Source: Nemertoderma westbladi (Eukaryota > Animalia > Xenacoelomorpha). Taken from it: a stretch of DNA of 64,000 nt. A program made the position numbers and the translations under genes. The notes below the pieces were generated by a model. The model was not told the DNA's origin and made no database searches. It worked only from the letters and a program-made list of their open reading frames with translations. The stretch is taken from positions 6,248 to 70,247 of the forward strand of contig JAUCBJ010008544.1 in the NCBI GenBank assembly GCA_032718475.1, read 5' to 3'. Positions within the stretch are counted from its first letter, which is position 1; each line of letters opens with the position of its first letter. This document shows, one piece after another, positions 17,191 through 45,813 of the stretch.

Positions 17191-17782
17191 TGTGACGGGA
17201 TCAGGGGATCCCGACTGGTTAGTTTTCGTTACGCGTCGCCGCTCGTTGTTATGAGAAAAGGATAATAGTTAGTTGTTGTTCTGATATTGTTAATGCAAAT
17301 CACCAAATATAATATAATAGCAAGAAATATATATGTAATGTTAATGAATAAGATATAATAACGTTGTACCGGTAGTGGCGGTGACGGCGGTGACGGTACG
17401 AAAATGTCACCTAACTGCACTAATTAATGACTGAGTAAACTGAACAACCGACCGGTAGCAGGACGATATATATATGTATATAATTAGTACACCACTACGG
17501 CCTTCGTCCAGTGGATACTCTCCCCCCCGCTCTCATTGGCTGTTGGCCCACTTCACGCCTCTCACCTCTGTGGGAGTGCTTCCCCCCCGCTGCTGTTACT
17601 TTCCCTCTCCCAAGAGGTTTGACCTATAACCCCTTTTGTGTGGCTCTTTGGGGCCTTATGTTGTGCCCGTTATTGGGGGTGATACGAGGTTGATTGTAAT
17701 CAACCTCGTACTCCCCAATATTGCTTAAAACGCCACTTCCCAACTTTATGGGGTCGGTGGGGCGGAATTGAATCCGCTCACA
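17191..17782 (-). repeat. 3' LTR of the outer element
   Basis: Direct repeat of 45814-46399 with several substitutions and small indels; PPT adjacent. Confidence 0.95.
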
Positions 17783-22200: not shown

Positions 22201-22348
22201 GAAGGTGATGAATTATTTCACTATAAGGTAGCATTTGTAGTTTAACTTTAACGTAAAAACTTTTGAAAATCCGACGTATTTTGATTAAGTTACAGTAATG
22301 TAATATGCCTATTCATATTTGTACACATAAAACCCTTAGGTACTCTCG

Positions 22349-22417
22349 TGGCGTAGTGGTCAGATGGTTAAGGCGTTGGTTACATTACGTAGGTTACGAG
22401 TTCGAATCCCAGTCGGG
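22349..22417 (+). other. tRNA-derived segment (Pol III A and B boxes) in U3 of the inner LTR; second copy at about 39604-39672
   Basis: A-box-like TGGTCAGATGGTTAAGGC and B-box GAGTTCGAATCCC with tRNA-like spacing; acceptor and anticodon stems are degenerate. Confidence 0.6.
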
Positions 22418-22464
22418 AAATTTGTATTTTGGGGCCATTTATTTTCGTGTGTTGCTAATTGGTA

Positions 22465-22711
22465 GGCCAATGAGAAGCGTACAGCGTAGCGAATGATGAG
22501 CCAGGCCAATCATAGGGCATAAATTATCTTATTGCTCAAATGTGAGGCAGTGGAAAATTCTGTTAGGATTCCATGTCCCAGATTAGTGTAAGGGCTGGAC
22601 TGCGTTGAACGATGAGCTGGGCCAATCATAGAGCACCGAAGCACTTCATTGCTCAATGGTGAAGCTGTGGAAAATTCTGTTTAGTTTCCATGTGCAATTT
22701 CTAGTATAAAA
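22465..22711 (+). promoter_or_regulatory. Putative LTR promoter: three CCAAT boxes, a ~115-bp tandem duplication and a TATAAAA box
   Basis: GGCCAAT near 22466, 22504 and 22620; TATAAAA at 22705-22711. Confidence 0.55.
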
Positions 22712-25387
22712 GGCCGGTTTGCCTTCGGTTATCACACTCTCTGTTATCATCCTGATATCGTTTATTCTTGTAAAATTAGTTAATTCGGTTTCTTGTTGAA
22801 ACTTTATTTGATAAATCCTTTTGTAAAACTGTAAATATACTGCAATTTCCTGACATGTTTTCTTTTGGTCCGACTTCGGGACAGCCGAACACCAGGGAGA
22901 TGGCAGCCTAGATCGTTAGGCCGTAAGCAACGCAGGGAAGGGATGTCCACAACACGCTAGCGCCCACATTGGATCGACCGCGCACCCCCTTTGCCCCTTC
23001 GAAATGCTCAACTTGCTATGCAGCGCCCGCTTTGTGAGAAGGTAAGACTTTGTTCGACGCCCTTGCCCGCCGTAAGACCTATAGATCAGGGTAAGCGTGA
23101 CACCGTACTGGACGCCGCAAATTTAGGATCAAATAATTATATCCAGACACCCCCCCCCCCCTTTGTCAGTCCTACGAATCCCTGGGTTAACCTGTACTTC
23201 CTACAGGTGCGAACTATTGCCATTCGTCAGTACGCGAGTACATATTAGGTACGGACAGCATACGTTCCATAATTTAGTGATTCATAGCACTGACTGTTTG
23301 GTACCGGTTCGCTTTGTAGAACGTACATTAGTACCCCCCCCCCCCCTGTCTGGAGTTAGCTATTTGATCAGGCAAGGAGCATTTCTGCTACCGGCACACT
23401 GCTTGGCCTAGGGAGGTTTATTAATATCCTACCGCGCCTTGCCACGTACTGATAGGTATTGCTGCTAACTACCGCAGCAACAAAGTTCTAGAATTAAATT
23501 AGTATACCAGATCAGCTAACGTACGGTAGCGATTAACCCCTATTCTTATCTTACAACCAGAATCTGGTATTAGTGCCGATCACGGGTGTAGTTACTAACA
23601 CTGTGGTTGCCCATTGGGTTGTGGATAGGAAGGAGAGAGCTTTGACGTCATTCGTGAGTATAAAGTTCTACAAACGCGACTAGTTTATTTTAGTAGCTAG
23701 CGCACGGTATCATTTAGTCAGAAAATCACTAAAACCTAGTAAAAGGAATTACACGAAATTGTTTTATTTGTAACACACCCACACACACACGCCCTAAAAC
23801 ATATCGCCCTTAAAGTTCTACTAGCTATAGCGTACTATACATTACTTTAGGTGGAAATTATCTGTATTTGTAAAATTAGGATCTGATTTAGTTGCGGCAA
23901 GATAAGGAGTATTTCACTTTCGTTATTAAACTGTTGTTTGTCTGGACAACGGTATTGTTACATTTAGGCCTGACCTTTTAGACTGATTTCGTACAGGGGG
24001 ATCAGTTATTGTTACATTTAGGCACGACCTTTAGGCTGATTTCGACAGGGATGATCAGCATTGTTACACTAGGTCTGTTAACCACCTAGTTCGTATATAA
24101 CCCATATAAATCACACCGCGGCAAGTTACTGTATTTAGGACTGTCAGTGATAGTTAGGATTCGCTGCGCGGGGATTGTTTTCCCGTGAGTTTGGTCTGTT
24201 ACTGTAACTGTACATCTGCCTCACCGGTTAGAGGACAGGTATCCTTCTGTCTAGTACGTAGGCATTAGACCCGCTCACGTACATAGAATAGATACAAGGC
24301 TCTGTTCCTCGCCAGTAGTCGTTTGTGTACTATATCTGTTTGTTTAGATATCCTGGACTGGGATTTGTTGTCAGATACTGTACAAGCCCGTATACATTAC
24401 TAGAGTCTCATAGTAAGATACATCGTTACTAGGATCTGGTAAGCGGTATACTACTGGACCCTTACAGTAGGAAGTATATTATACAAATTCTGAAATTAGT
24501 GTATAGTATAGTTTAGATCTGCTAGCTATTGTAAGTAGGAGATATTTAAAAATTTAAGGTTAGTAAATTTAGTAATTTAGAACGTCCCCTGCTTCAGTAG
24601 GCTTTTAGGGTAGCTAGTACTTTCGTATTTAATATTTGACTAGCTAACAGTTAGTTTGTAGCACTTTGTTTTACGCCGTGTGTGTGCGGTGTTACTTTTC
24701 GGTACTTGAAAAGGTACATAGGGTTTAAAGACCAATTTGTATCGGTACCTAGGAAGATTTTTCGTAAGCGTAGAAGTAAAACTCTCACCTTCGACCTTTT
24801 CAGGACTCAAGGACTCATTTCTGGACCGCTTCGAGGATTAGACCGCTTTTCGCAAAGTTTGGGAGACAATAAATTCGTCCGCGCCGCCGAAAAACGGAAA
24901 GACCCACGTCCGGTTTGTATTTGGGAATTTGTACGACTGGAAGATCAAAGGAACGTAAGTTTTACGACTCGCGTCGTTCAAACTTAAGAAAGCACAGTAG
25001 TACTCAAAATTTGTGGGTTTCACTGTCTATTAGTAGTGTTGTTGGTACTTATTTTCCCGTTAGACGTTGCTGTTTGGCCTATTGTTTATACTTGTTGATC
25101 TACATTTTGTTAACGTATATCGTTATCTCACTTATTCGTACAAATTTAGCCGGTAGGCTAGATTACTACTTATTTTATTATATACCTTGTTAGTTTATTT
25201 GTACCGGTTAGGGTATATATATGATATATATATATATCAAGGTAAGTTTGACATTTGTACATTTCGACATTTTGACATTTCGACATTCTGACTTGTTGAT
25301 TTATTTGTACCGGTTAGGTAAGTTTAACACTTCAACATTCAGACACTTTGACATTTTATTATCCGTACTTGACGTATATAATAAGAC

Positions 25388-28300
25388 ATGAGTGACATAC
25401 CCCATTCGACGAGATACCCACCTACCGACTATGACTCGTGCGACCCGGACAGATCGACAGTAGACGAACCGAGAAGGAGAACCCGAGATTCCACCGATGT
25501 CACACCGCTTGCGTCGCCGGTACCCCGAACGGAAATACCGGAAACCGCAACGCGTGGCGACGGCAGAATCGAAGATTTCCTTACCGTCCCGCAGACTAGA
25601 TCGCGGGAACCGGACATGGTAAGTTCGACTGGAAGCCAGGAGAACGTTATTAGAAGTATAGGAGGACACATGGCCCAGATTACTCGGAACCTCGGAGAAG
25701 GTTTTCGCGTTTTACGCGAGTTAACCGCCCCGATGTCGAGATACGAGTTCTACACCTTACAGGTAAGGATAGAAAGTAGGGTACATGCCTCCGTAGATAA
25801 ACTTAAAGGTTTGCACGAACTTGCAGAGTTGCGTGGCGACAACTTTACTCAGGTAAAGATAGTAGATAAATTGGTAAGTGCGAGAGAAAGCCTTATCCAG
25901 TTTAAGTCGGTGATAAGATTGGCTCAACAGGAGCAGTTTGACCAACTGCTAGGTGAGTCAGTTTCGGACGCGTTGTTACAACCCGAAGAGGAAGAAGAAC
26001 TCTACTGCCTGGACGGAAGGTTGGAAACGCTGACCAATTTTCTTCGTAGATGCGGCGTACCGATCGACGAACCGGAAGTCGAACCACGAGGGACGACGGA
26101 AGTTCTCACTACGGAAGGCTCGCGAGCCTACCAACATCCACCACTGGATAGATCGTTCGTTAGCGTACGGAGCGACGTTGGCAACGTTGGCGACGTTAGT
26201 AGAACAGCGTCTGGAATTACTCGACAACAACAGGAGGTTGCACGCCGACAACAAGTCGCCGAGGAAGAAGCGCGACACCAGATGGCACAGATCGCCATCG
26301 AAGGAGAGAAACAACATAGAGAGGACGAGGCAAGAATTGCACAACTCAAGGCGCAAGCCGAATTCGAAGCTTCGGAAATGCGCAGACTGGAGGAGGACTT
26401 AGCGCGAGAAGCGGCGGCAGCAGCCGACGAGTTAGCACGGAAGAAAGCAGCATCCGATGCTCGTGCCAAGTTGGAGGCGCGACAAATAAACGCACGATTA
26501 GCTATACAGGAAGCGGAATTAGCGGCACAACAACAAGTAGCGGATCGACGCGAAAGGGAGATGCAACTACAGTTCGAATTGAATCGTAGATCGCGTGAGA
26601 CAGCGAACGCGCAAGCGGACCTCGAACTCGACGCGAGAGATAGATCTATAAGATCGCGAACTGGACACGACTTGTCTGCCCTGGATCGTATGGAAGCTCG
26701 ATATCGCGGAATACAGAAGCGGATCGAGGAAGGAAGTGTGGGAGCGATAGATCGAGGAGAGGAGTTCGTCGAGGATTACTGTAAACGTTTTCCCCAAGTT
26801 ATTCCTATGCTCAAACCCACGACTCCGATAAAACCGGTCTTCGTTACGAAACCTAAGGAAATAACGCCTGTGCGTTCGACGCAAGGCAACAGGTTTGTTG
26901 TGACGGAATTACCGCAACCTAGGGCGACTTCATCGCCAATTTTAGCAGGTAACATAACTAGTCCACCTACAGTAAGTCGTAGTCTACTTGTAGGAAGAGA
27001 GGAACCTGCGTTTATGACCATTAAACAGGTGAGTAAACCATTACAAGTTAAACCTGTGACGTGCTGCGCGAACCCAGTCATTTATAAACCTACAGTAGAC
27101 CTTAACCCTGATGTTTTTACTAGACCTCTCACCCAATGTTTAACGAGACCTACGACTTCGTGGAAGGCTTGCGAGCCTGCCGAACAACGGAGAGCCGTAG
27201 ATCTCAGATCACAACGAACTCGACCAAGGATAATACGCCGGACGCGAACCCGCCAACCACCTTATCCGGACGACAGCGATTCATCCAGTGACTTGGAGTC
27301 GACGGAACGGGAAATATTCCGTACTGGAGCGGCAGCGGCAGCGGATTACAAACGGGAGGAACGATCGACGAACCCCTATATTGACAATCCTCCACGAGAA
27401 ACACCCCAACAGAAACCCACGTTGCAACCAGCGGAAACGATCAGCGCCAAACAGTTCACCGAGATGACGGACAGAATAGCTCAACTCGAAGAACGACTCG
27501 AAGCGCAACCGTCGGATCGATCTCGAACCAGCGTGGAGTTGGAACAACCTAGACAACATCGACCACCGAGGAGAGAACAGGAGACTAGACGGACTCCGAC
27601 ACATCGAGAAGATGATCCCGTTAATAATTCCTACCGACGAACAACGCGCGGAAGGGAGCGACTGGACGACGCCGCCGAACAGGGACGCGGACAGTTGGAT
27701 TTAGTTAGCGAGATTGCGAAATTCGCGGCTAGACACGGATTACCGGCACAGCAACCGCCGAAGTTCTCTGGCAACGCGAAACACTGGCGCACACTGGTAG
27801 ACTACGTAGAGTCCCAGATCGCTAAGTGTGCTTTCACCTCGACGGAGAAGTTTAACTACTTGCTCCAAGTTCTGTCTGGTGAGCCGAAACGATTAGCGGA
27901 AACCTTTATTGGTGTTCCCGATGCCTTTGAGTTGGCGTACGACCGTTTGTATTCGATTTACGGCGGTAATGTCGCCATGGCTAAATCCATCATTGAAGAC
28001 CTCTGCAGAGGAGGCAACATTTCGAGACCGATCGACCTTTTACGACTCGCGGACGAAATAAAGAACGCTATAGGGACTTTACGGTCCATTGGACAACTCG
28101 AGTACGCTAACGCACCGACGGTTCTCATTCGAATAATCGGTCGACTTCATCATCGACTACGACGAGAATGGCGACGCATCGAGTACCAACGCGAAGAGGC
28201 CGGAGGGTTATTAAAACTCACCGATGTCTATCAACTTATTTCACGGGAGGCCGTGATCGAGACTCGATCGAACTATACCGATCACCATATCGCGGCGGAA

Positions 28301-31300
28301 GGGATAACTGTTTCTGCGCCGAATCGGACAAAACCATTTCCGACGAACGCGAAAGCCGTTACTTACGCCACCCCTACTGAGACTTCTAAAGTTCTGACGC
28401 CTATCGGCACCACGCAGCCACGACAACAGTTGCCGGCGGACTTTGTGGGATGCTCATACTGCGAGCGGAACGGCAGAAACCATAGCGGACATAAACTACG
28501 TGGATGTCGCGCTTTTAAAGAGTTAGGGATCGAGGAAAGGAGACTCCAAATCCGATCTCTAGATTCCTGTTGGAGATGTATGAAGCCAGGACACGTCCGG
28601 AAGGATTGCCCGAGCGACGATACATGTTCTTTGTGTGGACGTAACCATGACGCGTTGCTTCACACAACCAGTCATACTCCGACCAGACGCTTTCGACGAG
28701 AGCATCCAGATAAAGCGGCTAGATGCGACGCGCTTTATAAGGAGCGTGCGCCGCGCGAGATCCGTACCTTTTATACCGACTGTATGGATCAGTCAGGATC
28801 ATCGGACGAGGACGAGGAGGAAGACGACACTTTCTACGTGCATGCAGGTGAGGAACAGCCATCGATAACGCTCCTCACACAGAACCAATTGAAAGGGTTT
28901 AGCGTGATTCCTATAAAGATTACCGGAACCCGAGGGAGCAAGCGTATATACGCCATCTTAGACTCTGCGTCATCGCATAGCTATGTCGACGAACAAGTAG
29001 CCGACGTAGTTACGGACTTGAGTCAAGGTAAGACTGCTCAGTATACTGTAAGCAGCATGCATGGTAAGAGAGCGATTCCTGTGACGAGAGTAAAACTAAC
29101 CTTAGACACTCTTCTTTCCAAAGCGGAACACAGCAAGGAGGAGCGCTCATTACTTCCGGTAAGAAATTTGACCTTTGCAGCTACGAAGGACTTTAGTAAC
29201 TTGCTCGGCCCTGTGCCAGAGCAATCACCGGAAGATCGTAAGTATTTCCGACACCTTGGAATACCGGAATGTCCTGTCAATTATCGTTCCATTGCGATGT
29301 TAATTGGGACAGACCAGTTTAACTTACATCAGGTATGGGAGACACGCCCATCTGTTATTACAGCAGGCAACCCCTACGCATGTAGAACTCCCATAGGTTG
29401 GTATACTAGAGCACCAATACGTTCACTAGAGGTAAGTGACCAGGAGGACGACGTTTTGAGTACGTGTAGTTTATTGACTAACACGATAGATAATTCTCCT
29501 TCACACTCCTGTGGTCCAATTGTACGGACGGCACTACGACAGACTTGCGTCACTAACGCGGACGCCACCGATACTGACGTAACCGATCTGGACACGACCA
29601 TACGGACCTCTGACTTACAACTACTTGCAGTAGACCAGGTTGTATTGACTACTGAAGACCTGAGGGTTGTTGCTGTGGATGACTCGATGAACGAGGATTT
29701 TGGAAGGCTTGCGAGCCTACCGAAAAATCCGAAGGTCATTGACCCCACCCACCAGGCTTCGACACCGGTCGTTGATCTTGGAAGGCTTGCGAGCCTACCG
29801 ATAGATCAAGAAGTTGTCAAACCGCCGCACGACAATTCGACGCCGACTAGTGACACCGGAAGGCTTGCGAGCCTACCAGACACATTGACACTAGCCACCG
29901 CAGCGGACGAAGACGTGGACGAGGACCATGGCGCAGTGCAAGCAGCGTTTGACCGACTGCTGACTGAACGGACCATACAATGGTTGGAACAGGACTCAGC
30001 AGAACCCGGTAGTTACGAGACCGCTATGTCAGAACAGGAAAAACGGTCATTAAATATTATGAGAGATACCATTCGCCAGACTGCGAATGGCCACTATGAG
30101 GTTGGTATGTTGTGGCGCGATGGACAACCTAAGCTCGTTAACAATTACCCGCTTGCTTTGAGGCGACTCAAATCAATAAGGCAGCGATTGTTGCGAGACG
30201 AGACGGCCCATATGCAATACAACGCACAACTTCAGACGTATCTCCAAAAGGGATACGCCATTAGGATGTTAAATCCTGAGGTAACTACAGACCAGACATA
30301 TTACCTGCCACATCATTTTGTTCGACACCCGGACAAACCTGGCAAGGTGCGTGTAGTCAACGACTGCGCTGCGCTTTACCAAGGGATGTCTATGAACAGC
30401 GAACTGATGGACGGGCCGAATATGAATAATTACCTCATGGGAGTCCTAATGCGTTTTAGACAACGCAAAGTGGCTTTCACCTGTGACGTAGAGGCCATGT
30501 TTCACCAGGTTAAGGCTTTGGAGCGGGACAGGGACAGTTTGAGGTTTCTTTGGTATCCGGACGGAAACTTACAACTTCCGCCAGAAACTTACCAAATGCA
30601 GGTAAGAGTATTCGGAGCCAGGGACAGCCCCAACTGCACCATGTACGCATTGAAGCAGACAGCATTGGACAGACGAGACCAATTTGACCCAGAAGTAGTT
30701 CGGACCGTGGAACGAGATTTCTACGTGGATGACGGCCTCAAGAGTTGTGACACCTTGGAGCGCGCTACAACCGTAGCACACCAACTCCAGGATTGTCTCG
30801 CTGAGGGCGGATTTCACCTGACGAAGTTCGCTTCCAACGAACCCGAACTGGTGAACTCATTTGACCCGACGGATCGTAGCGGAGGTGACTTGGACTTAGA
30901 CCTAGAACCTCTGCCGACGACCAAAGTATTAGGACTTAGTTGGGACCCTAACACCGACAATTTTAGGGTACGTGTAAGGTCCAACGACCAGACTAGACCT
31001 CTCACTAAGAGGACTTGCTTATCGACTATGAGTCGATTGTATGACCCATTGTGTTTCATTAGTCCAGTGATCCTACATGCCAGGATCATACTCCGCAGCA
31101 TTTGGCAAGCCGGACTGGAATGGGACGATCCCATCCCAGAAAAGTTAGCTGAGCGATGGAGGGACTGGGAAGCCCAACTGACGTTCCTACAAGACTATAC
31201 CATACCGAGGGTATACTTTCCTTTACAAACCACCTTTCCTGCCGATTTAGAGCTTCACAGCTTTAGTGACGCTAGCAAGGATGGATTGGGGGTTACTTTA

Positions 31301-34153
31301 TACCTTAGACGACAAGTGACATCGGACAGCTACGATGTGTCTCTCGTTACTTCAAGGGCTAGAACAATGCCATTGAAGTATATGACTGTACCTCGTGGGG
31401 AGCTGCAAGCCGGGACGATATCCACCGATATTGTCAGTCTAGTTCAACGCGAGCTGGAGGCTAACTTGAAGGTCACATATTGGACGGATGCGACGTTGGT
31501 ACTTTGGTACATAAACAACGAAACATTCGAGTTCAAGACTTTCGTAGCCAACAGACGGGCTGAAATACTAGACCGGTCGCTCAATCAAGATTGGCGTCAC
31601 TGTCCAGGGAAGCTGAACCCAGCTGACATCGCGTCACGGGGAATGCAACCACTTGACTTTTGTAAACCGGACAATAAATCCTTTTGGTTTAGAGGACCCG
31701 ATTTCCTACAGCGACCATCAGACGAATGGCCACCGTTATTCGACGCGACAACCAACACCATACCAGAGGGTGCCGAGATAAAACTCGACAAGGTTGTCAA
31801 GTCTAAAGCGAAAGCCAACGCCAAGGTCAAAAGGAAAAAAGGACGGACGAAATCTGATGACCTGGACGCCAGACCTGACATTACGCCAGACGTCTCGCCA
31901 GACACTCGACCAGACGCTTGTACGAATCCTTCGCCGGATGTTCCGCGGGAGATTTCACCAGACGTTTCGCCGGATTGTTCACCAGATTACTCGCCAGACT
32001 ATTCACCAGAAGAGACACCAGATTGTTCTCCGGATTGTTCGCCAGATTGTTTGATGGAACTCTCGACAGAATGTCTACCGGACGTCTCACCAGACTGTTC
32101 ACCAGACATCTCGACAGACTGTCCACCAGACTGTCTACCAGACTTTGAACCAGACTTTCTGACAGAAGTTACGCTAGACAGACTTTGGGACCGACGACAG
32201 GACATTTCGCCGGATGTTCCGCGCTATGTCTCACCAGACGTCTCACCAGACTGTTCACCAGACGCTTCACCAGACTGTCTACTAGACACTCCATTAGAAG
32301 ACCCATTGGAGCGGACATTTAGAGACGTACCAAATTCGACTTCTTTGGACGACAGAGATGTGGCCACAGGGATTACACTCCGCTCGAAGAAGGTACTTGA
32401 CTTACCTACAGGTAAACGTGTGACTAAGGTTAGGAAGCTTACAGGCTCACAGGAACACACTGACGCTGTAGAGTTGAAACCATTACTGCCAGTCGACACA
32501 TTAGGTGCGGACGGTAAAGGTAAGACCGTAGAGATTGACGTACTTGGGGACTCAGACAAACCTACCGGAAGGCCCGTGGGCCTACCAAGTCCAGACAAGT
32601 ATCCACACTACGACTACACCTTACCCGATGACGTCACTAACACTTACGTTGACAGGATAGTGAACCTAACTAGATCATGGACTGACGCGTGCCGCAAGTT
32701 AGCATGGCTCAAACGATTGAGACAATATGCCAGAGGCAAACGCGACTTTCCTAGAAGACTTACCTTAAAGGAAATTGGCCACTGTGAAGTTGATATCATT
32801 CGACATTATCAATTGCGATATTTCGCACGAGAGTTCACAGCGATCAAACAAGGTAAACAGATTAAGTCTTCACCGATTTTGAGTTGGAGTCCGATTATTT
32901 ACCGGGGCTTACTTTGTCACAAGTCCAGACTCCAAAACATCGACTTTGCACTTGACTTTAGGTATCCTATCATCATACCGCAACACCATGAGTTACAGCG
33001 CGCTATGATACTGGACGCACATGTACAACTCAAACACGTAGGTAGACACCACTGTCTATCACACTTACGCTCGAGGTTTGTACTGATTAGACCTAGTAAG
33101 GCACTGAGTTCAGTAACACGGAACTGTATTATTTGTAAGAAGGTGCACGCGAGGATAGGACACCAAGAAATGAGTGAACTACCACTAGCAAGATTACAGG
33201 CGTTTAGACCCCCTTTCACTGAGACAGGGATAGACTGTTTTGGACCCATAATCGCGAAACGCGGAAGGGTACAGGTAAAACGTTGGGGATTGATCTTCAC
33301 TTGCATGGCCAGCAGAGCTGTCCATATAGAGCGAGTGACAGACTTGTCCACCAATGCCTTTATCCTAGCCTTACGGCGATTTATCGCTAGACGTGGATTG
33401 GTCAAATCCATATACTGCGACCAAGGGACAAACTTTGTGGGTGCACGGAACGAGATAACCAGAGCTTTGAGAAAATTGGACCAAAACCAGATTTCCGAGG
33501 AACTACGTCCTCACCGTATTGTTTGGTTTTTCAATACTCCAGACAGTCCGTGGAGAGGCGGCGTTTGGGAAAGGCTGATTGGCTCAATAAAGACAGCTAT
33601 GGCTAAAGTCGTACCGACGCAACACATCTTGACAGACGACCAACTGACGACGTTACTAATAGAAATCGAAGCAATCTTAAATACCAGACCGATCGCTTTG
33701 ATCCCAGACAATAACGACGTACAGTTTGCCTTGACACCAGCGCACCTGCTTATGCAGGCGCCGACGACACTGTTGCCCATTTCGGTACCCGTTGATAGTG
33801 ACGGATACGGCAACAAGGCTTGGAAAATCACTCAATTGCTTGCAAATAAATTCTGGGAAATATGGCAGAAATATTATTTGCCCTCTATTTCGACCAGAAC
33901 CTCTTGGTATCTAAATACCCGATGTTTAAGACGTGGTGACCATGTTTTATTGGCTGAAGCTAATCTGAAAAGACGGTTTTGGCTGACTGGAGTCATTTTG
34001 ACCACGCACCCTACATCTGGTGTAGTGAGGACAGTTACTGTACGGACTATCGACGGTCGTACCGTAGACAGACCTGTACAACGTCTCGTACTCCTTGAGG
34101 AGACTAGAAACGAGACGGGAGACTACAAATCTCCACCCAATATTAGTAAATAG
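25388..34153 (+). CDS. BEL/Pao Gag-Pol polyprotein (Gag with 3 Cys/His boxes, protease, RT, RNase H, integrase)
   Basis: PKFSG..W gag motif; CSYC..H..C, CWRC..GH..C, CSLC..H..LLH; ILDSAS; YYLPHH, DVEAMFHQV, FYVDD; FSDAS; NPADIASRG; GIDCFGP, CDQGTNF, GGVWERLI. Uninterrupted 2921 aa. Confidence 0.97.
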   Translation: MSDIPHSTRYPPTDYDSCDPDRSTVDEPRRRTRDSTDVTPLASPVPRTEIPETATRGDGRIEDFLTVPQTRSREPDMVSSTGSQENVIRSIGGHMAQITRNLGEGFRVLRELTAPMSRYEFYTLQVRIESRVHASVDKLKGLHELAELRGDNFTQVKIVDKLVSARESLIQFKSVIRLAQQEQFDQLLGESVSDALLQPEEEEELYCLDGRLETLTNFLRRCGVPIDEPEVEPRGTTEVLTTEGSRAYQHPPLDRSFVSVRSDVGNVGDVSRTASGITRQQQEVARRQQVAEEEARHQMAQIAIEGEKQHREDEARIAQLKAQAEFEASEMRRLEEDLAREAAAAADELARKKAASDARAKLEARQINARLAIQEAELAAQQQVADRREREMQLQFELNRRSRETANAQADLELDARDRSIRSRTGHDLSALDRMEARYRGIQKRIEEGSVGAIDRGEEFVEDYCKRFPQVIPMLKPTTPIKPVFVTKPKEITPVRSTQGNRFVVTELPQPRATSSPILAGNITSPPTVSRSLLVGREEPAFMTIKQVSKPLQVKPVTCCANPVIYKPTVDLNPDVFTRPLTQCLTRPTTSWKACEPAEQRRAVDLRSQRTRPRIIRRTRTRQPPYPDDSDSSSDLESTEREIFRTGAAAAADYKREERSTNPYIDNPPRETPQQKPTLQPAETISAKQFTEMTDRIAQLEERLEAQPSDRSRTSVELEQPRQHRPPRREQETRRTPTHREDDPVNNSYRRTTRGRERLDDAAEQGRGQLDLVSEIAKFAARHGLPAQQPPKFSGNAKHWRTLVDYVESQIAKCAFTSTEKFNYLLQVLSGEPKRLAETFIGVPDAFELAYDRLYSIYGGNVAMAKSIIEDLCRGGNISRPIDLLRLADEIKNAIGTLRSIGQLEYANAPTVLIRIIGRLHHRLRREWRRIEYQREEAGGLLKLTDVYQLISREAVIETRSNYTDHHIAAEGITVSAPNRTKPFPTNAKAVTYATPTETSKVLTPIGTTQPRQQLPADFVGCSYCERNGRNHSGHKLRGCRAFKELGIEERRLQIRSLDSCWRCMKPGHVRKDCPSDDTCSLCGRNHDALLHTTSHTPTRRFRREHPDKAARCDALYKERAPREIRTFYTDCMDQSGSSDEDEEEDDTFYVHAGEEQPSITLLTQNQLKGFSVIPIKITGTRGSKRIYAILDSASSHSYVDEQVADVVTDLSQGKTAQYTVSSMHGKRAIPVTRVKLTLDTLLSKAEHSKEERSLLPVRNLTFAATKDFSNLLGPVPEQSPEDRKYFRHLGIPECPVNYRSIAMLIGTDQFNLHQVWETRPSVITAGNPYACRTPIGWYTRAPIRSLEVSDQEDDVLSTCSLLTNTIDNSPSHSCGPIVRTALRQTCVTNADATDTDVTDLDTTIRTSDLQLLAVDQVVLTTEDLRVVAVDDSMNEDFGRLASLPKNPKVIDPTHQASTPVVDLGRLASLPIDQEVVKPPHDNSTPTSDTGRLASLPDTLTLATAADEDVDEDHGAVQAAFDRLLTERTIQWLEQDSAEPGSYETAMSEQEKRSLNIMRDTIRQTANGHYEVGMLWRDGQPKLVNNYPLALRRLKSIRQRLLRDETAHMQYNAQLQTYLQKGYAIRMLNPEVTTDQTYYLPHHFVRHPDKPGKVRVVNDCAALYQGMSMNSELMDGPNMNNYLMGVLMRFRQRKVAFTCDVEAMFHQVKALERDRDSLRFLWYPDGNLQLPPETYQMQVRVFGARDSPNCTMYALKQTALDRRDQFDPEVVRTVERDFYVDDGLKSCDTLERATTVAHQLQDCLAEGGFHLTKFASNEPELVNSFDPTDRSGGDLDLDLEPLPTTKVLGLSWDPNTDNFRVRVRSNDQTRPLTKRTCLSTMSRLYDPLCFISPVILHARIILRSIWQAGLEWDDPIPEKLAERWRDWEAQLTFLQDYTIPRVYFPLQTTFPADLELHSFSDASKDGLGVTLYLRRQVTSDSYDVSLVTSRARTMPLKYMTVPRGELQAGTISTDIVSLVQRELEANLKVTYWTDATLVLWYINNETFEFKTFVANRRAEILDRSLNQDWRHCPGKLNPADIASRGMQPLDFCKPDNKSFWFRGPDFLQRPSDEWPPLFDATTNTIPEGAEIKLDKVVKSKAKANAKVKRKKGRTKSDDLDARPDITPDVSPDTRPDACTNPSPDVPREISPDVSPDCSPDYSPDYSPEETPDCSPDCSPDCLMELSTECLPDVSPDCSPDISTDCPPDCLPDFEPDFLTEVTLDRLWDRRQDISPDVPRYVSPDVSPDCSPDASPDCLLDTPLEDPLERTFRDVPNSTSLDDRDVATGITLRSKKVLDLPTGKRVTKVRKLTGSQEHTDAVELKPLLPVDTLGADGKGKTVEIDVLGDSDKPTGRPVGLPSPDKYPHYDYTLPDDVTNTYVDRIVNLTRSWTDACRKLAWLKRLRQYARGKRDFPRRLTLKEIGHCEVDIIRHYQLRYFAREFTAIKQGKQIKSSPILSWSPIIYRGLLCHKSRLQNIDFALDFRYPIIIPQHHELQRAMILDAHVQLKHVGRHHCLSHLRSRFVLIRPSKALSSVTRNCIICKKVHARIGHQEMSELPLARLQAFRPPFTETGIDCFGPIIAKRGRVQVKRWGLIFTCMASRAVHIERVTDLSTNAFILALRRFIARRGLVKSIYCDQGTNFVGARNEITRALRKLDQNQISEELRPHRIVWFFNTPDSPWRGGVWERLIGSIKTAMAKVVPTQHILTDDQLTTLLIEIEAILNTRPIALIPDNNDVQFALTPAHLLMQAPTTLLPISVPVDSDGYGNKAWKITQLLANKFWEIWQKYYLPSISTRTSWYLNTRCLRRGDHVLLAEANLKRRFWLTGVILTTHPTSGVVRTVTVRTIDGRTVDRPVQRLVLLEETRNETGDYKSPPNISK
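31860..32290 (+). repeat. 12-bp-unit coding repeat (SPDC/SPDV) inside pol, between RNase H and integrase
   Basis: TCACCAGACTGT-like units. Confidence 0.85.
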
Positions 34154-34889
34154 ATGTGGGACCTTTGTTGGCCGCCACATAGACCTACTGTATTTTAGTT
34201 ATTTGTATTTGTATTACTGTACGTGCATTTGTAATCCTCTTCACTGTAGATAGAGACAGCGGTGGAATTCCATTGTCTTTATACGTGAACATGGAGGGTA
34301 GTACCCTTATGTATCACATAGGAGCGGGATTGTGTGTACAGTAGGAATGGAATTCCACTTGGAACCCACAAGTGAGACAATTTTCAAAAATTATTAGACA
34401 AATCCATTTAGTTGGATTTAAATTTAAGAAAAACGATTCTCCAGTGAAAGCAAATTCTAGAATACAGCTAGATAAAATTAAAATTGGGGAGGACAAGAGC
34501 GGATGGAAGGCTTGCGAGCCTACCGATAAATTTTTTTTGGAAAAAGAAAATCGGTCTTGTTCTACGTAGTCGTGTCTACTATTATTTAGACCGAATTAAT
34601 TCTCGACTGCACTATTTTTCTTGGGAAATGTAGCTTGGGAAATTAAAAGGTGAGTATTTTAGACTCGCGGCTAGTTTACCCGGAATTCGTTTTTTATCGG
34701 CACAATTTTTTGGATTAGGGGCCAGTGCGAAATCACGCGAACCCGAAGTCATTAGGCAAAATGGGTTGGGGTTTAGAGCAGAGTTGAGCCAAAAGCCAAC
34801 AAACTCTGGAGTCACCTCACATCTAACCTCTATTTTGTGCTTCATCTAGTAGAAACGTAACGATATGTAACCGCATATATTCGTATACA

Positions 34890-37649
34890 ATGGTGGAGAA
34901 GATGTATAAAGAGTTACGTCAAGGGTTTACGCAAGAACAGGAGCACCAGGCACCATTCAATCGTTATGGAGCTAAAAACTTTAGTGTGTTTGGAGTGGAG
35001 AGTATGGCTAGGAGTACGGCCAAGCTCGCTAAATCCAAGGCGGACCCGAATGTTACGCGACAGCGGTTGGACGCATACAACAAAAGAACGGAGGAATTAC
35101 GCGCGGAATACAATGCGTTATATCCCTACGATGCGTTATGCGACGCTAGCGACATTTGCGAGGATCCAGACACCGAAATACGCCGATTGTATCATACGCT
35201 GCAATATTTGACGGTAAACGAACCTTTACCTGCAGCTAGAGACGAATTTGAAGGAATGCATCTTTATAGACGCGCTCGAGGAGCGGATCCAGAGACCAAG
35301 GACGCGTTTTCCGTATACAAACTGTTTTATAAATGTGGAGCGTGTATGCGCGAGCAAGACAACGCGATTCCTATGCGGTTGAACTCGGAGAACCCCGAGC
35401 CGATATTAGCGCGATGTTCACACCACCAAAGTCTACGTTACCAAGAAGGCGGATACCCTTTGACAAATCCGTATCATTCATTTAAGATGAGTGGACCGAA
35501 CGCGGGTGAGATCGTTATTTACGAACCTAAATTAGTCGAACCAGACGTCTACAGCATGGTAGTGGACGAGTCTAACAAGTCGACACAAGAGAAACGGGAA
35601 GCTTTGAGCCTCTACAGGGCGTACAAGGCGTACGAGAAAGGCGAGATCGAGGAGTTCGGCGGAAGGCTCAAAGGATACTTTAGAGAGTATAACACGCTAA
35701 AAACTGGGACGGGTTATATCTCATATCTGATGTTCAGTTGGGATTACAAGGAGAGTAAGAGGAACAAATACACGGACGTATACGGAGAGGGAGATACCCC
35801 CGGCGTAAACGAGTTCGAGTCACAGTTGAAGTGGCGAGGTTGCGTGTATTGGGCGATTACTTCACCTCCGCGGATAATCTTGCAATACTATTTAGCGATA
35901 GAATCTTCGGTTAACGTTTGTTTCATCGCGGACGTAGTATCCAGAACCTTAAAGCGACACCCGTTATGTCTTGGCGAAGGACATACCTTTTACGATGGAG
36001 GAAGGACGCATACTGATGTATTCCGACGATTTCTCCAACCCTTTTATAACACCGATGCGCACTGCGAAGTTTTCACGCGAGCGGGACTTAGCGTTTTCAG
36101 GGACGTCTATCTCACTCACGCGGGAAGTCTAGTCGACAGACCGTCGATGTTAACGTTAGTACCCTATGACGGGGAACGCCACGCGGAATTCGAACGCCCG
36201 GAAGGATCCTGGAAGGCTCGCGAGCCTACCGCCCATCATGACGATGTGGATCCGACCGAGTTGGCGCTAATAGACGAACCGTTACGGCAACTCATAGAAA
36301 TAGAAGAGAACCTTCCAAGGAAGACGCGAACTGAGATACGCGAGTTAGAGAAAAGCGATGCCATGGTTTGTGTACAACCTACGGAGACGAACATACCGAC
36401 TGACCCGGATGATGAGAATTATCACGTGGACGGTAGCGCTCGCCCCATCGGAGACCTCATCTATGAGCGAGTTTGGTATCCTGCCAACACTATTTGTGGC
36501 AGATGTGGAGCAACTGGCCATCACGCAAAGAAGTGCGGAGCGAAGCACATATCTCTACCGGATTTAGTATGCAACTGGTGCGGGGATCAACGTTCGCACA
36601 CTTTCTACACTTGCTGGCGTTTCGTGGCGCAGTGTACTTATTGTAATATTAAGGGCCATAGGGCATCTGAATGTCAACTTAGAGACGTCCCCTATGAGCA
36701 CATGTCAGTTAAAATCGTTCGACAATTATTCGACCATTGGGAGGATCTAGCAGACGAGCATGTATCGACGCAGCGACGCCGCTTCCCTATGAGAGCACAT
36801 TTGGGATTTTGGGCCGTAAACCCTCTCATAATGTCAAAGGAAGGATATGTATCGGCTATGCCTCAGTACGATGAATTGTTGGAGGTATTGGATATATTGC
36901 CGTTGGACAGTGGATTCAAAGTTGTGCGGGACTATTTCTTACAAGTGCACCCGGACAACAAGAATACTTGGAACTTTCAAACTGTGGTGAACAAGATTAC
37001 CGCCGGAGAATTCGATAAACTGCGAGTTGAACAGCGGAATCGAGGAGCCTGGCATTCGATAGCTTGGGCATACCGGAGCGCATTTTATCACAAACGCGTA
37101 ACCTCGTGCATTCTGGACGAGACCGACGTTTTGCGTGAGACTGGCTTCAAGGCCACGCCGTTAGCGGAGAAGACGCGTCACCCACAGGATGATCAGCAAT
37201 TTCGTATACTCAAAGCCCAGAAGGCCGGACAAGAGATTAAGAAGATAGTGAATGTCGCCGAGAGGACGACATCGAAGTCGCAAATCCGGATGACTCGGGG
37301 CACGGTTTCCCTTGCTAGAGAACCACGCGGAGGGACAGGATACGCTTTGACTGAACCCATTAGGATTCAAACGACGTCAGAGAGCGAGGTGTCAACGGAC
37401 GGAACAGTCCTACCCTTTCGACTTCCTCCTAGCGTTGTAGAAACTCGATCCGATGTTAAGTCGACAGTTGGAATCGGACGAGGATTTAGAGGATTGAGCG
37501 CACGACGGATGTGCGAAACTCCCGTCGTCCCCTTTCCTAGCGTTTTGGAACCACCGACGACTCGACGCCGAAGTCCGAGCCCAGTTCGACCTCGACCACC
37601 CCCCAATCGCACTAGAGGACGTGGACGAGCCCGCTCAGCGAAGGAATAG
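34890..37649 (+). CDS. Additional 919-aa ORF of the inner element; unknown protein with three CCHC-type zinc knuckles and a basic R/P/S-rich tail
   Basis: CGRCGATGHHAKKC, CNWCGDQRSHTFYTC, CTYCNIKGHRASEC; no evident signal peptide or transmembrane segment. Confidence 0.85.
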   Translation: MVEKMYKELRQGFTQEQEHQAPFNRYGAKNFSVFGVESMARSTAKLAKSKADPNVTRQRLDAYNKRTEELRAEYNALYPYDALCDASDICEDPDTEIRRLYHTLQYLTVNEPLPAARDEFEGMHLYRRARGADPETKDAFSVYKLFYKCGACMREQDNAIPMRLNSENPEPILARCSHHQSLRYQEGGYPLTNPYHSFKMSGPNAGEIVIYEPKLVEPDVYSMVVDESNKSTQEKREALSLYRAYKAYEKGEIEEFGGRLKGYFREYNTLKTGTGYISYLMFSWDYKESKRNKYTDVYGEGDTPGVNEFESQLKWRGCVYWAITSPPRIILQYYLAIESSVNVCFIADVVSRTLKRHPLCLGEGHTFYDGGRTHTDVFRRFLQPFYNTDAHCEVFTRAGLSVFRDVYLTHAGSLVDRPSMLTLVPYDGERHAEFERPEGSWKAREPTAHHDDVDPTELALIDEPLRQLIEIEENLPRKTRTEIRELEKSDAMVCVQPTETNIPTDPDDENYHVDGSARPIGDLIYERVWYPANTICGRCGATGHHAKKCGAKHISLPDLVCNWCGDQRSHTFYTCWRFVAQCTYCNIKGHRASECQLRDVPYEHMSVKIVRQLFDHWEDLADEHVSTQRRRFPMRAHLGFWAVNPLIMSKEGYVSAMPQYDELLEVLDILPLDSGFKVVRDYFLQVHPDNKNTWNFQTVVNKITAGEFDKLRVEQRNRGAWHSIAWAYRSAFYHKRVTSCILDETDVLRETGFKATPLAEKTRHPQDDQQFRILKAQKAGQEIKKIVNVAERTTSKSQIRMTRGTVSLAREPRGGTGYALTEPIRIQTTSESEVSTDGTVLPFRLPPSVVETRSDVKSTVGIGRGFRGLSARRMCETPVVPFPSVLEPPTTRRRSPSPVRPRPPPNRTRGRGRARSAKE

Positions 37650-37683
37650 GAAGCGAGTGGAAGGAAGGCTTGCGAGCCTACCG

Positions 37684-37756
37684 ATTTGGATATTATATTT
37701 GGATATTATATTTGGATATTATATTTGGATATTTTATTTGGATATTTATATTGGAC
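37684..37756. repeat. 13-bp tandem repeat (ATTTGGATATTAT) x5
   Basis: Seen directly. Confidence 0.85.
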
Positions 37757-39460
37757 ATACCTAAAGAGGTGAGGTCTCTATAGGGGTGTGTCCAACAGGC
37801 GGCGGCGGACTCGTGAGGGTCTGGGGGCACGTTAAATCAATATATAGTGCTAGGGAGTCACTGAAGGCCCTCGTGTCTAGCGAACCATGAATCGACATGG
37901 TGCCGTGGTTCCGTCTAGTCGGCCTGTTGCCGTACTGCCAGTCCTGTACACAGTAGGGGTGGTGGCATGGCGTGATTTGTGGTTCATGTGGCGTGAACTA
38001 TGTTTTGTATGTGGGCGATCAGTGGCAGTTTGCTTGGGGCTTGGATGGGTTCCTTTGGCCATCAGCTGTTCCGTTTTTTTGATACTATATGTTATTGTCT
38101 CCATGTTCAGCTGATTGGTCTTTGGGATTTGTTCGGGTCTTTGAGCTTTCTGTTGCTGTGGGTACGTGAGTACATGTGATTGTATGTGTGGCCACTGCGA
38201 GTGAGTATGGGAACCCTTGCCAGTTGGTCCAGATGCCGCTGGTATTAGTAGGACCATATCTCTACTGCGCCTCAGCATACTTTGTGCACACAAAGTTATT
38301 TTGCCCTGTCGGCAAAATAAGGTACTCTCGATTAGCCTGTTAGTCGATACAATTTGTCCCCTCTGATTTGACCCCGATTTTGTCTTTACCGATTTTGTCT
38401 CTGTGTGTGCATGGTATGTGTTCGATTTGTGCTTACCGTTGTGTACTTGATTTCGTGAACATCTGTTGAGTACACGTGTACAGTGACTGGTAAGTGGTTA
38501 CTTGTTCAGTAGCTTTTGAGCTACAGACAGTATTGTCTTTTCAATACTGCCGGCGAGGCAGGTGAAAACGTGTCAAAATTCCATGTTGGGTAGCGCAAGC
38601 CCATGTGGGACAAGACCGTCGGTTAGGCCCAAGGGCGACCTTGGTGCTCGATCGCTATCGACTGGTCCACCTGCCGGTTGACTCTTTGTTATACTTTGAG
38701 TTGGCTCAATGTACAGTCAGGCCACAGTAAGTTGACAGTAGCCGCCCATCTGGCTACACGTTCGACGAGCTGTGCCGGTGTGATCGGGGGACCGAAAACA
38801 GAACCCGGGAAGCATCGGACCACCCTCCGGCCCAGTCTGATAATAACAAGCAGTCAGACTGGCCCCAGGGGTGGTGGAAAGGTGTCCGCCTTGTGGGTGC
38901 GCCTCCGGGAGGAGCCCAGAAGGACACAAGCGTATGTTTGAATGTTGGGTTTGGAGGAGCGAGATATGGAAGGAAGGCTTGCGAGCCTACCGTTAGCAAT
39001 TAGTGCTCAGGAGAAGATATCCAGACCAGCAGGACGAACTTTTTAGATCGTCAGGAGGACTCATTTGAAAGTTATTAGCGCATTATGTTTATATTATATT
39101 TGGACAGATTTAATTTGGTGAAGGTTTATTATGTATATTTACAATATATAAAGATTTATCGAAAGAGTTTGATTTATTTGTTCGATTTGTTTTGATTTAT
39201 TTGTTCTGATTTGTTTAATTTGTTTACCTTGATAACCGAAAGCCTTTTTTTGTATTTTAGGCACTAAAGTTAATTCGTAAATTTGTATTTGTATGTACGA
39301 TCGATTGTATTTACGCCGTATCTGCAATATTAAGTATGCAATAATTAGATAGTGATTATATTTTATATTTTAGGCCCTACCAGTAAATTTAGAAATAGTT
39401 TGTAGATATTTTATATTTTGATTGGTGAAAACAGTCTTACTTACTGTTTTCATGGAGCGG

Positions 39461-41723
39461 TGATGAATTATTTCACTATAAGGTAGCATTTGTAGTTTAA
39501 CTTTAACGTAAAAACTTTTGAAAATCCGACGTATTTTGATTAAGTTACAGTAATGTAATATGCCTATTCATATTTGTACACATAAAACCCTTAGGTACTC
39601 TCGTGGCGTAGTGGTCAGATGGTTAAGGCGTTGGTTACATTACGTAGGTTACGAGTTCGAATCCCAGTCGGGAAATTTGTATTTTGGGGCCATTTATTTT
39701 CGTGTGGTGCTAATTGGTAGGCCAATGAGAAGCGTACAGCGTAGCGAATGATGAGCCAGGCCAATCATAGGGCATAAATTATCTTATTGCTCAAATGTGA
39801 GGCAGTGGAAAATTCTGTTAGGATTCCATGTCCCAGATTAGTGTAAGGGCCGGACTGCGTTGAACGATGAGCTGGGCCAATCATAGAGCACGAAGCACTT
39901 CATTGCTCAATGGTGAAGCTGTGGAAAATTCTGTTTAGTTTCCATGTGCAATTTCTAGTATAAAAGGCCGGTTTGCCTTCGGTTATCACCTTCTCTGTTA
40001 ATCATCCTGATTATCGTTTATTCTTGTAAAATTAGTTAATTCGGTTTCTTGTTGAAACTTTATTTGATAAATCCTTTTGTAAAACTGTAAATATACTGCA
40101 ATTTCCTGACATGTTTTCTTTTGGTCCGACTTCGGGACAGCCGAACACCAGGGAGATGGCAGCCTAGATCGTTAGGCCGTAAGCAACGCAGGGAAGGGAT
40201 GTCCACAACACGCTAGCGCCCACATTGGATCGACCGCGCACCCCCTTTGCCCCTTCGAAATGCTCAACTTGCTATGCAGCGCCCGCTTTGTGAGAAGGTA
40301 AGACTTTGTTCGACGCCCTTGCCCGCCGTAAGACCTATAGATCAGGGTAAGCGTGACACCGTACTGGACGCCGCAAATTTAGGATCAAATAATTATATCC
40401 AGACACCCCCCCCCCTTTGTCAAGTCCTACGAATCCCTGGGTTAACCTGTACTTCCTACAGGTGCGAACTATTGCCATTCGTCAGTACGCGAGTACATAT
40501 TAGGTACGGACAGCATACGTTCCATAATTTAGTGATTCATAGCACTGACTGTTTGGTACCGGTTCGCTTTGTAGAACGTACATTAGTACCCCCCCCCCCC
40601 CCTGTCTGGAGTTAGCTATTTGATCAGGCAAGGAGCATTTCTGCTACCGGCACACTGCTTGGCCTAGGGAGGTTTATTAATATCCTACCGCGCCTTGCCA
40701 CGTACTGATAGGTATTGCTGCTAACTACCGCAGCAACAAAGTTCTAGAATTAAATTAGTATACCAGATCAGCTAACGTACGGTAGCGATTAACCCCTATT
40801 CTTATCTTACAACCAGAATCTGGTATTAGTGCCGATCACGGGTGTAGTTACTAACACTGTGGTTGCCCATTGGGTTGTGGATAGGAAGGAGAGAGCTTTG
40901 ACGTCATTCGTGAGTATAAAGTTCTACAAACGCGACTAGTTTATTTTAGTAGCTAGCGCACGGTATCATTTTAGTCAGAAAATCACTAAAACCTAGTAAA
41001 AGGAATTACACGAAATTGTTTTATTTGTAACACACCCACACACACACGCCCTAAAACATATCGCCCTTAAAGTTCTACTAGCTATAGCGTACTATACATT
41101 ACTTTAGGTGGAAATTATCTGTATTTGTAAAATTAGGATCTGATTTAGTTGCGGCAAGATAAGGAGTATTTCACTTTCGTTATTAAACTGTTGTTTGTCT
41201 GGACAACGGTATTGTTACATTTAGGCCTGACCTTTTAGACTGATTTCGTACAGGGGGATCAGTTATTGTTACATTTAGGCACGACCTTTAGGCTGATTTC
41301 GACAGGGATGATCAGCATTGTTACACTAGGTCTGTTAACCACCTAGTTCGTATATAACCCATATAAATCACACCGCGGCAAGTTACTGTATTTAGGACTG
41401 TCAGTGATAGTTAGGATTCGCTGCGCGGGGATTGTTTTCCCGTGAGTTTGGTCTGTTACTGTAACTGTACATCTGCCTCACCGGTTAGAGGACAGGTATC
41501 CTTCTGTCTAGTACGTAGGCATTAGACCCGCTCACGTACATAGAATAGATACAAGGCTCTGTTCCTCGCCAGTAGTCGTTTGTGTACTATATCTGTTTGT
41601 TTAGATATCCTGGACTGGGATTTGTTGTCAGATACTGTACAAGCCCGTATACATTACTAGAGTCTCATAGTAAGATACATCGTTACTAGGATCTGGTAAG
41701 CGGTATACTACTGGACCCTTACA
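39461..41723 (+). repeat. 3' LTR of the inner element (2263 bp)
   Basis: Preceded by a short purine-rich GGAGCGG and the hairpin TGAAAACAGT / ACTGTTTTCA (39426-39452). Confidence 0.97.
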
Positions 41724-41728
41724 GAAGG

Positions 41729-44397: not shown

Positions 44398-45813
44398 CGG
44401 TACTACGAGCGCCGTTGTGCATCGACTCCTCCTCCTGTTGTGGTAGACGGCCGCCCTCCGCTTGGGCTACCGGATCGTTCCTTTCCGGCGAGTCCGGTGT
44501 TGCGGGTCGATACCGTCGCGGTGTAAAAGCTTTTGCGGATATAACCAGTCATTTTTCTCCGTAATGAACTGTTTAGTTGTTTTAGCGGACATAACAAGCC
44601 ATTTTCTGCCGCAATATGCCTAATACTCTAAAAGACTGGAACTCCGATGACGAAATCTGTCAGCTGGTTTACTGTACACGTGGAGCCTCTCTTTGTTCAG
44701 GCTCGGCCAATCAGAGCGATTTTCATTTAATCTTGCACAGAGGCCTACGGAAAACCGCGCAATGCATTACGGTCTTTGTTTACCTTTCTGAGCGAGAACA
44801 ACTGCTTGGAAATTCTTCTGTACTTCTGTGTTGGAAGTTTCAGACTTTGGCCAACATTAGACGGCTTTGATTATAAGAACGTAAATCTATTATCCTGTCA
44901 ACTTGTCAACTGGCTGACTGCACTGTGCAACTGTGCAACAAACCATAACAACTGCACCTGGCTGCAACTGCGGTACCGACATACTGACTTTCACCACATT
45001 ATTTTACTTCTGTTTACTGTCTGTTATTAATGGTTATATGTTGATGGATATGTTGTTATATTTGGAGAATATCGATAAATAATCATAAAACCCCTATCTT
45101 CTTGATTACTGAAGGTAAGAGGGACCTGTTACCAGTAGCAATTGCGACTTACATTACAGTGGTTTTAGTGTGCATTAAATGCTATTTCATAATCCCTACA
45201 TGTGTCAGTTGCTATCCTCCTTATATATGGTTAAATTCAGTGACGGTCGGCAGATCAGTGTGCAGCAGTGTGAAGTCGTATGCAGCAGTGTGACAGATAA
45301 TAAAGCATCTCCTAAGGAATGCGCTATTTACGAAAATCAGTAGCCATCTCGTTGTGTTTAGTATAAGTCATAACTCTGTTTTATACTTAAAGCGCCACGT
45401 CCTAAAGGAACTGTTGATATTTCCCCGAAAGTGAATAATATTGTCAGAGATTATAAAGTAACGATCAATCGAATAATACAGTAGGTCTGCAACGCAATAA
45501 CTTCGAAGCACCCGAATCCAGTCTCCCTTAACTGTGGGTGAATGATCGCGCATAGACTGACTTCGGCTAATGTTACTTCATGTGCATTAAATAATTGTTA
45601 TAGGCTAAAGTCGATTTATAAACAAGAAGACACCTAAAATTGGCAGGTTAAACTGCTAAAGGTCTGAAAGCGCGAACACGTGGATCGTTTCGTTCGTATC
45701 GTCCGGGGTCCGCGGCGGTGTCGTCTCTCCCTTTAGATTTCGGGCTTCGCTCATCCTTTAGTCTTTGATGGTGGCTGGCAGTCACAGCTTTAGCAGTTGT
45801 CTGATTTTCGTAC

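Follow-up and report, generated by a model that had tools for sequence, protein, structure and literature searches.

The question raised by this locus is what primes reverse transcription of a BEL/Pao element whose primer binding site (PBS) is not of tRNA type and is complementary to the element's own LTR. In the window, i.e., the whole stretch of 64,000 nucleotides that was analysed, this inner element occupies positions 22206-41723 (19,518 bp), is flanked by a GAAGG target duplication and belongs to an abundant and young family; the repeat identity of its LTR copies is 99.4%. A start of the LTR near 23166, as given in the preliminary description, was wrong by 960 bp. The real start at 22206 was fixed by the two LTR copies and the target duplication, and contigs from public runs diverge from the window at 22204-22205, consistent with this position. 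The limits and main parts of the element are as follows.

22201..22205, + strand: target site duplication GAAGG, left copy
22206..24466, + strand: 5' LTR of the inner element, 2261 bp, TG...CA
24467..24485, + strand: non-tRNA primer binding site, with no gap after the LTR
25385..34153, + strand: open gag-pol frame, 2922 codons from stop to stop
34827..37649, + strand: extra ORF of 940 codons downstream of pol, with three CCHC-like knuckles
39454..39460, + strand: short purine tract, GGAGCGG, adjoining the 3' LTR
39461..41723, + strand: 3' LTR of the inner element, with TCAAG at the acceptor and the primer site at 40450-40459
41724..41728, + strand: target site duplication GAAGG, right copy

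Judged by protein domains and Pol order, the inner element is a member of BEL/Pao. Thus, the gag-pol frame encodes DUF1759, protease, reverse transcriptase (YVDD), Pao peptidase/RNase H, integrase and DUF5641, Pfam families PF05380 (E 1.6e-39), PF18701 and PF03564 were found in the polyprotein, and the order of Pol motifs in the translation is PR-RT-RH-IN. The polyprotein has 811 homologues, with the same domains among the matches listed. For the extra 940-codon ORF, comparison with Pfam gave weak matches only (E 0.35 and 0.88), with no family match and no envelope. A 12-bp tandem repeat in pol (31882-32300, + strand) encodes a stretch rich in SPD that separates RNase H from integrase. Two single long ORFs were also noted elsewhere in the window, one for an RNF14-like E3 ligase (59503-61005, - strand, approximately 37% to fish RNF14) and one for a sulfotransferase (51107-52210, + strand).

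At the end of the 5' LTR, CTTACA (24466) was followed by GTAGGAAGTA, as had been described, and the reported lack of TGG was borne out, the nearest TGG being 355 nt downstream. The sequence TACTTCCTAC, at 23195-23204 within the LTR, was likewise found to be the exact reverse complement of the PBS, and the extension of this pairing to a 12-bp duplex with one G:U was reproduced. This sequence occurs only at 23195-23204, in the PBS (as the complement) and in the 3' LTR. The match is at offset 0, and among decoy windows taken from the element's own leader (n = 300), 3 reached 10 nt anywhere in the inner LTR. The hairpin placed around this site is real and longer than had been claimed, having a 7-bp stem (ACCTGTA/TACAGGT) that covers both ends of the site; stems as long were noted at 13 of 2216 positions in the inner LTR.

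23190..23208, + strand: hairpin that encloses the unspliced primer site, with a stem of 7 bp
23195..23204, + strand: direct, unspliced 10-nt complement of the PBS

A longer match of the PBS, comprising 14 bp and reached by none of the 300 decoys, was evident at the joint of 22834-22841 and 23170-23175. In this match, AATATACT at 22834-22841 is the pairing partner of PBS letters 7-14, with four further pairs past one bulge, and the two halves lie at the edges of a candidate intron. The features of this part of the LTR are as follows.

22467..22712, + strand: three CCAAT boxes (22467, 22506 and 22622) and TATAAAAG (22705), a likely promoter as judged by its motifs
22830..22841, + strand: candidate end of exon 1, of which 22834-22841 pairs with PBS letters 7-14 and 22830-22833 with letters 16-19
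22842..23169, + strand: candidate GC-AG intron of 328 nt, with a weak donor and a strong acceptor (12 C and TTTGTCAG)
23131..23144, + strand: AT-rich stretch, previously taken for a TATA-like box, which by its position 33 nt before the AG could equally be a branch point
23170..23175, + strand: candidate start of exon 2, TCCTAC, complementary to PBS letters 1-6

The TCAGT at 23166 had been read as an initiator, which is unproven; it comes after 12 C and TTTG and has the form of a 3' splice acceptor, with 23168-69 as the AG and the following six letters completing the 14-nt match, and the promoter lies at 22467-22712. From these motifs, transcription is predicted to start near 22735, which would probably place both PBS matches within R and the primer at some distance from the 5' terminus of the RNA. 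The canonical promoter 460 nt upstream and the place of 23168-69 as an acceptor AG make a start at 23168 less likely, and a 37-nt 5' fragment beginning there is accordingly an unlikely primer for the inner element. The TCAAGT variant previously noted in the 3' LTR was confirmed and, in three DNA runs, also made up 24-38% of the depth; this variant retains the AG ahead of TCCTAC.

Two other ways of forming a primer from this region were rejected. Thus, splicing from the GT at 22831 would yield no more than 9 pairs, a number reached by 152 of 300 decoys, and the end of an excised intron at 23206 has, by inspection, a mismatch at its second-last letter. Within the candidate intron, 22854-22880 (+ strand) contains CA, 10 nt and then TGGTCCGAC, which we take to be a tRNA-type PBS motif; this layout resembles an LTR end followed by such a site and may be due to chance or be left over from an LTR of only 650 bp. 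Motifs like the A-box and B-box of a tRNA were seen by eye in U3 (22345-22415, + strand), possibly the head of a SINE or a Pol III promoter, and neither ARAGORN nor Rfam called a tRNA in this region. The only ARAGORN call was an AT-rich tRNA-Cys (39110-39200, + strand) in the 3' untranslated region, which is probably spurious and lacks the PBS complement, and an Rfam scan gave four weak matches, all under gathering scores.

The inner element was found to be inserted in another BEL/Pao element, which lies on the - strand and shares 30-34% protein identity with it. The relevant features of this outer element are as follows.

45814..46399, - strand: 5' LTR of the outer element, 586 bp
17191..17782, - strand: 3' LTR of the outer element, 95.5% identical, with target duplication TCGGG
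45804..45813, - strand: non-tRNA PBS of the outer element, GTACGAAAAT
46015..46024, - strand: exact 10-nt complement of the outer PBS, situated in a loop closed by a 6-bp stem, with imperfect pairing to about 46053

The 10-nt match of the outer element was reached by 4 of 400 decoys, and stems as long occur at 17 of 541 positions in its LTR. Compared with the inner site, four of the ten letters differ and all four are compensated on the other side. The pairing of PBS and LTR is present in the minimum-energy fold of the outer element, and the imperfect pairing runs approximately 37 nt back to a TCAGT; a primer consisting of a 5' fragment fits the outer element better than the inner one. The +28 spacing from TCAGT reported for the inner element does recur here, but the outer LTR has TCAGT motifs at three distances (23, 27 and 36 nt), so that this recurrence lends only modest support to a start at 23168 and was rejected as strong support. 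For the outer element, no spliced match was found that had 3 nt or more on both sides of the joint. A working rule for self-primers, given in PMC6317226, is complementarity of at least 10 nt at 0-5 nt from the LTR; the inner element has 10 nt at the direct site and 14 nt at the junction, and the outer element has 10 nt. The outer element sits in an array of a 36-bp satellite (15794-17190 and 46400-47270), and the inner insertion breaks its RT gene approximately 250 nt before the YVDD codons.

Relatives (35-45% identity) were represented by 79 loci on metagenome contigs, and a search of viral contigs revealed none. The 5' LTR end was fixed from both copies in 13 loci, of which 11 entered a null test; L016 and L069 were excluded since their LTRs were not delimited. 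In this test, 8 of 11 loci had a GT-AG junction match of 10-15 nt in their own LTR, each reached by 0-8 of 400 decoys, and one had a TGG-type site, as did L069; both of these are presumably tRNA sites. Direct, unspliced matches of 11 nt were noted in L024 (0 of 400 decoys) and L055 (1 of 400). A blind scan for junctions, which covered the 65 loci for which 600 nt or more of upstream sequence was present, gave matches of at least 11 nt in 12 loci as opposed to 3 of 1300 shuffles. A relaxed acceptor rule, set after the misses had been seen, gave matches of at least 10 nt in 19 of 65 loci and in 24 of 650 shuffles, a background at which chance may account for two or three of the 19. In total, 22 of the 79 loci, with 15 different PBS, had a junction match with a GT donor, 2 had a direct match and 2 were apparently tRNA-primed, while for many of the remaining loci the LTR was missing from the contig.

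Wherever the motifs were visible, the intron of these relatives was located between the TATA box and AATAAA or ATTAAA, i.e., in R; TATAWA was absent in 5 of 9 relatives. The distance from TATA box to donor was 137 nt in the inner element (from the box at 22705), 142 nt in L015, 138-140 nt in L027, 127-129 nt in L055 (to the position equivalent to the junction) and 36 nt in L013. Several further observations fall outside the counts or concern single loci. The LTRs at L014:9139 and L024:911 end in TA rather than CA in both copies, the putative PBS of L020 is near-palindromic and matches the LTR of this locus if one gap is allowed (not counted), L023 has a direct 10-nt match that is also similar to a tRNA-type PBS (not counted), and on the L043 contig one element is repeated perfectly with a period of 6138 bp, either a tandem array or an assembly artefact.

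Complementarity between the PBS and the element's own LTR has thus been kept with different letters in the outer element and in 24 metagenome loci. The sequence comparisons indicate that the inner element probably self-primes reverse transcription; this part of the preliminary description was upheld by the outer element and the 24 loci, and the part that specified a start at 23168 and a 37-nt fragment has become less likely.

The reading that we favour, at a probability of roughly 0.45, is that the unspliced direct site supplies the primer and has likely replaced an older splice-junction primer, the halves of which remain in the LTR. The transcript would start near 22735 with an R that carries both PBS complements, and the direct site at 23195-23204 would pair with the PBS. 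Cleavage of the RNA would follow ...UAC and would probably be the work of the element's own RNase H on the analogy of Tf1, where RNase H cleavage of an RNA duplex, the subject of a 1996 paper by Levin, reportedly frees the primer. Copying of the primer into the next PBS would keep site and PBS matched. On the most economical single history, splicing of 22841 to 23170 would have made the primer in the ancestor; a copy identical to the junction would have been gained 19 nt downstream and the donor would have decayed afterwards. The direct site, located 19 nt downstream of the junction, does in fact have the same sequence as its last ten letters.

The unspliced site was ranked first because the inner donor is a weak GC. 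Thus, the donor ACT/GCAATT (slash at the exon end) has 4 of 9 consensus letters compared with 6-7 of 9 in seven relatives, and an abundant and young family needs an efficient primer, which such a donor would hardly give. Also in favour of the direct site are the exact 10-nt match, the same design in the outer element, the hairpins at the inner and outer sites and the direct matches of L024 and L055. A switch from junction to direct priming was indicated by a quick tree (67 rows, with L059 left out), in which the direct-type L055 groups with the junction-type L038 and L040 at 99% support. This tree was otherwise poorly resolved, with junction types scattered and the inner and outer elements joined as long branches only, a point against the direct-site reading. 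Also against it, a 10-nt match alone is reached by about 1% of decoys, the hairpin stem masks both ends of the site, and the junction match is longer (0 of 300 decoys), has the cheaper duplex to form and includes 8 extra pairs, the perfect conservation of which is unexplained if the junction is a mere relic.

Energies of pairing and folding bear on the same choice. The junction duplex (14 + 4 bp) was calculated at -21.5 kcal/mol versus -17.4 kcal/mol for the direct site, and forcing the direct-site duplex cost approximately 22 kcal/mol in unspliced RNA and 17 kcal/mol in a model of spliced RNA, as opposed to 6 kcal/mol for the junction. When the RNA was left to fold freely, the PBS paired locally and with neither LTR site in all three inner models, whole-leader folding being unreliable at such length. 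In the minimum-energy fold of 24448-24514, the PBS pairs with U5 (24451-24454) and the leader (24500-24514), possibly as a closed state.

That the primer is still made by splicing of the GC-AG intron 22842-23169, with the 14-nt junction of AATATACT and TCCTAC as the primer end and the direct site as a bystander or back-up, is a doubtful though substantial possibility. Such a primer would act in cis or from co-packaged spliced RNA on an intron-retaining genome; since the LTR keeps its intron, a junction primer requires an intron-retaining template, and priming in trans by spliced RNA would suffice. Besides the 14 contiguous pairs with four more past the bulge, unmatched by any of the 300 decoys, and the lowest folding cost of the sites, this explanation draws support from the 6 letters between AG and the end of the match, which fall within the 4-7 seen in relatives, from a TATA-to-donor distance near those of L015, L027 and L055 (L013 differs), from the AG that the TCAAG variant preserves before TCCTAC, and from the excess of junction matches over shuffles in both scans of relatives (12/65 vs 3/1300 and 19/65 vs 24/650). 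Weighing against it are the very weak donor and the stronger GT donors at 23042 and 23091, which compete for the acceptor. The candidate intron contains four GTAAG and is 328 nt long as opposed to 67-186 nt in relatives; because internal GTAAG also occurs in the introns of L027 and L038, competing donors do not rule out splicing. The T at 22843 that would make a GT donor was absent among the best 40 of 70 variant rows. The variant data also revealed a diverged subfamily in which the letters of the hairpin stem are preserved, whereas those of the loop and of the start of exon 2 have both changed. Also unfavourable to the junction primer is A>G at 23174, which accounted for 5-6% of depth in two runs and would leave a wobble at the second-last primer pair, as is a possibly-RNA run (type guessed, depth 2) in which the single contig over the acceptor starts at 23160 and is unspliced there; no 22841-23170 joint was listed for this run at that depth. 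A gap over 22835-23160 in this run (X4) was rejected as a sign of splicing, there being other gaps and no listed joint. At 23039-23047 (+ strand), in the candidate intron, AAG/GTAAGA places an AG directly before a strong donor, which is the layout of a recursive splice site; splicing through it would yield the same junction in two steps.

It is improbable that, with no splicing at all, the PBS binds 22830-22841 and 23170-23175 next to each other while the intervening 328 nt are looped out, the RNA being cut after 23175. Such pairing would account for the 14-nt match without a working donor at a folding cost in unspliced RNA of 21 kcal/mol versus 22 kcal/mol for the direct site; only 6 pairs would adjoin the primer end, and the fact that real GT donors and AG acceptors coincide exactly with the joint in relatives argues for splicing as the origin of the match.

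Equally improbable is priming by a host RNA, i.e., a tRNA half or other small RNA, with the LTR matches being secondary. In favour of this explanation, ICTV gives tRNA priming for the family (PMC8742986) and PMC6317226 describes half-tRNA priming in Ty1/copia. Against it, no TGG lies within 355 nt, and the CCA end cannot pair since the PBS starts with GTA. A single host RNA cannot explain why 15 junction-type PBS and those of the inner element, the outer element, L024 and L055 each match their own LTR. Finally, that the inner matches arose by chance or are dead remnants with no function, as might be argued from the 10-nt match in approximately 1% of decoys and from the many windows that such scanning covers, is scarcely credible given two matches in the inner element, a third in the outer and 24 loci elsewhere, a 2922-codon open frame and LTRs 99.4% identical, and was largely refuted by the outer element, the decoys and the blind scan.

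A wider proposal, which on balance we think holds, is that in a broad part of BEL/Pao the host spliceosome builds the primer by removing an intron from R so that the exon joint pairs with the PBS, that some lineages have converted this to a self-primer that needs no intron and that the inner LTR shows both states. Self-priming, if true, would bring a third LTR superfamily under the Tf1 mechanism, and a self-primed PBS would explain why PBS finders overlook such elements. A splice-made primer would couple the onset of reverse transcription to the RNA processing of the host, would require either spliced and intron-retaining RNA in each particle or a primer acting in trans, and would make these elements independent of tRNA supply and of control by tRNA fragments. 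In the abstracts and open-access passages that the literature comparison covered, neither self-priming in BEL/Pao nor a splice-made primer was found; the available text of PMC554778 does not mention PBS or tRNA, and that of PMC3118150 does not mention primer, tRNA or PBS. The comparison also included PMC3601003 and PMC13524379.

Among known systems, the closest in mechanism are Tf1, Tf2 and Tj1, the Tf1/sushi group of Ty3/gypsy chromoviruses and, by prediction, plant Tcn1/TAR, which according to PMC4600332 and PMC6317226 also lack a tRNA site. In Tf1/sushi, as in the inner element, the PBS beside the LTR complements RNA encoded by the element's own LTR over at least 10 nt (same sources), and a DNA copy of the primer site is found on about half of Tf1 cDNA according to PMC11042837. 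The inner element is not a Tf1/sushi member, since its Pfam families are those of BEL/Pao and the Tf1/sushi polyprotein is of Ty3/gypsy type; moreover, in Tf1 and Tj1 the 5' segment of the mRNA serves as the primer, whereas in the inner element the primer is likely to come from 110-470 nt within R, where it would be part of a hairpin or span an intron. For Belpaoviridae, the replication of which is called poorly understood, ICTV describes an 18-nt PBS that fits tRNA-Arg or tRNA-Gly, together with LTR lengths of 0.2-1.2 kb and genomes of 4.2-10 kb (PMC8742986). The inner element resembles this family in its Pao peptidase, DUF1759, DUF5641, single gag-pol frame, PR-RT-RH-IN order, TG...CA termini and 5-bp target duplication. 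It differs from the described tRNA-primed form in having a PBS that starts with GTA and is not of tRNA type, its 2261-bp LTR and length of 19,518 bp are beyond the ICTV ranges, and it carries an extra 940-codon ORF. Cer7 of C. elegans, also a BEL/Pao element, is said to encode its own tRNA-like primer; the two elements would thus be alike in providing their own primer, which is reportedly a tRNA-like structure in Cer7 as opposed to a plain complement in R in the inner element.
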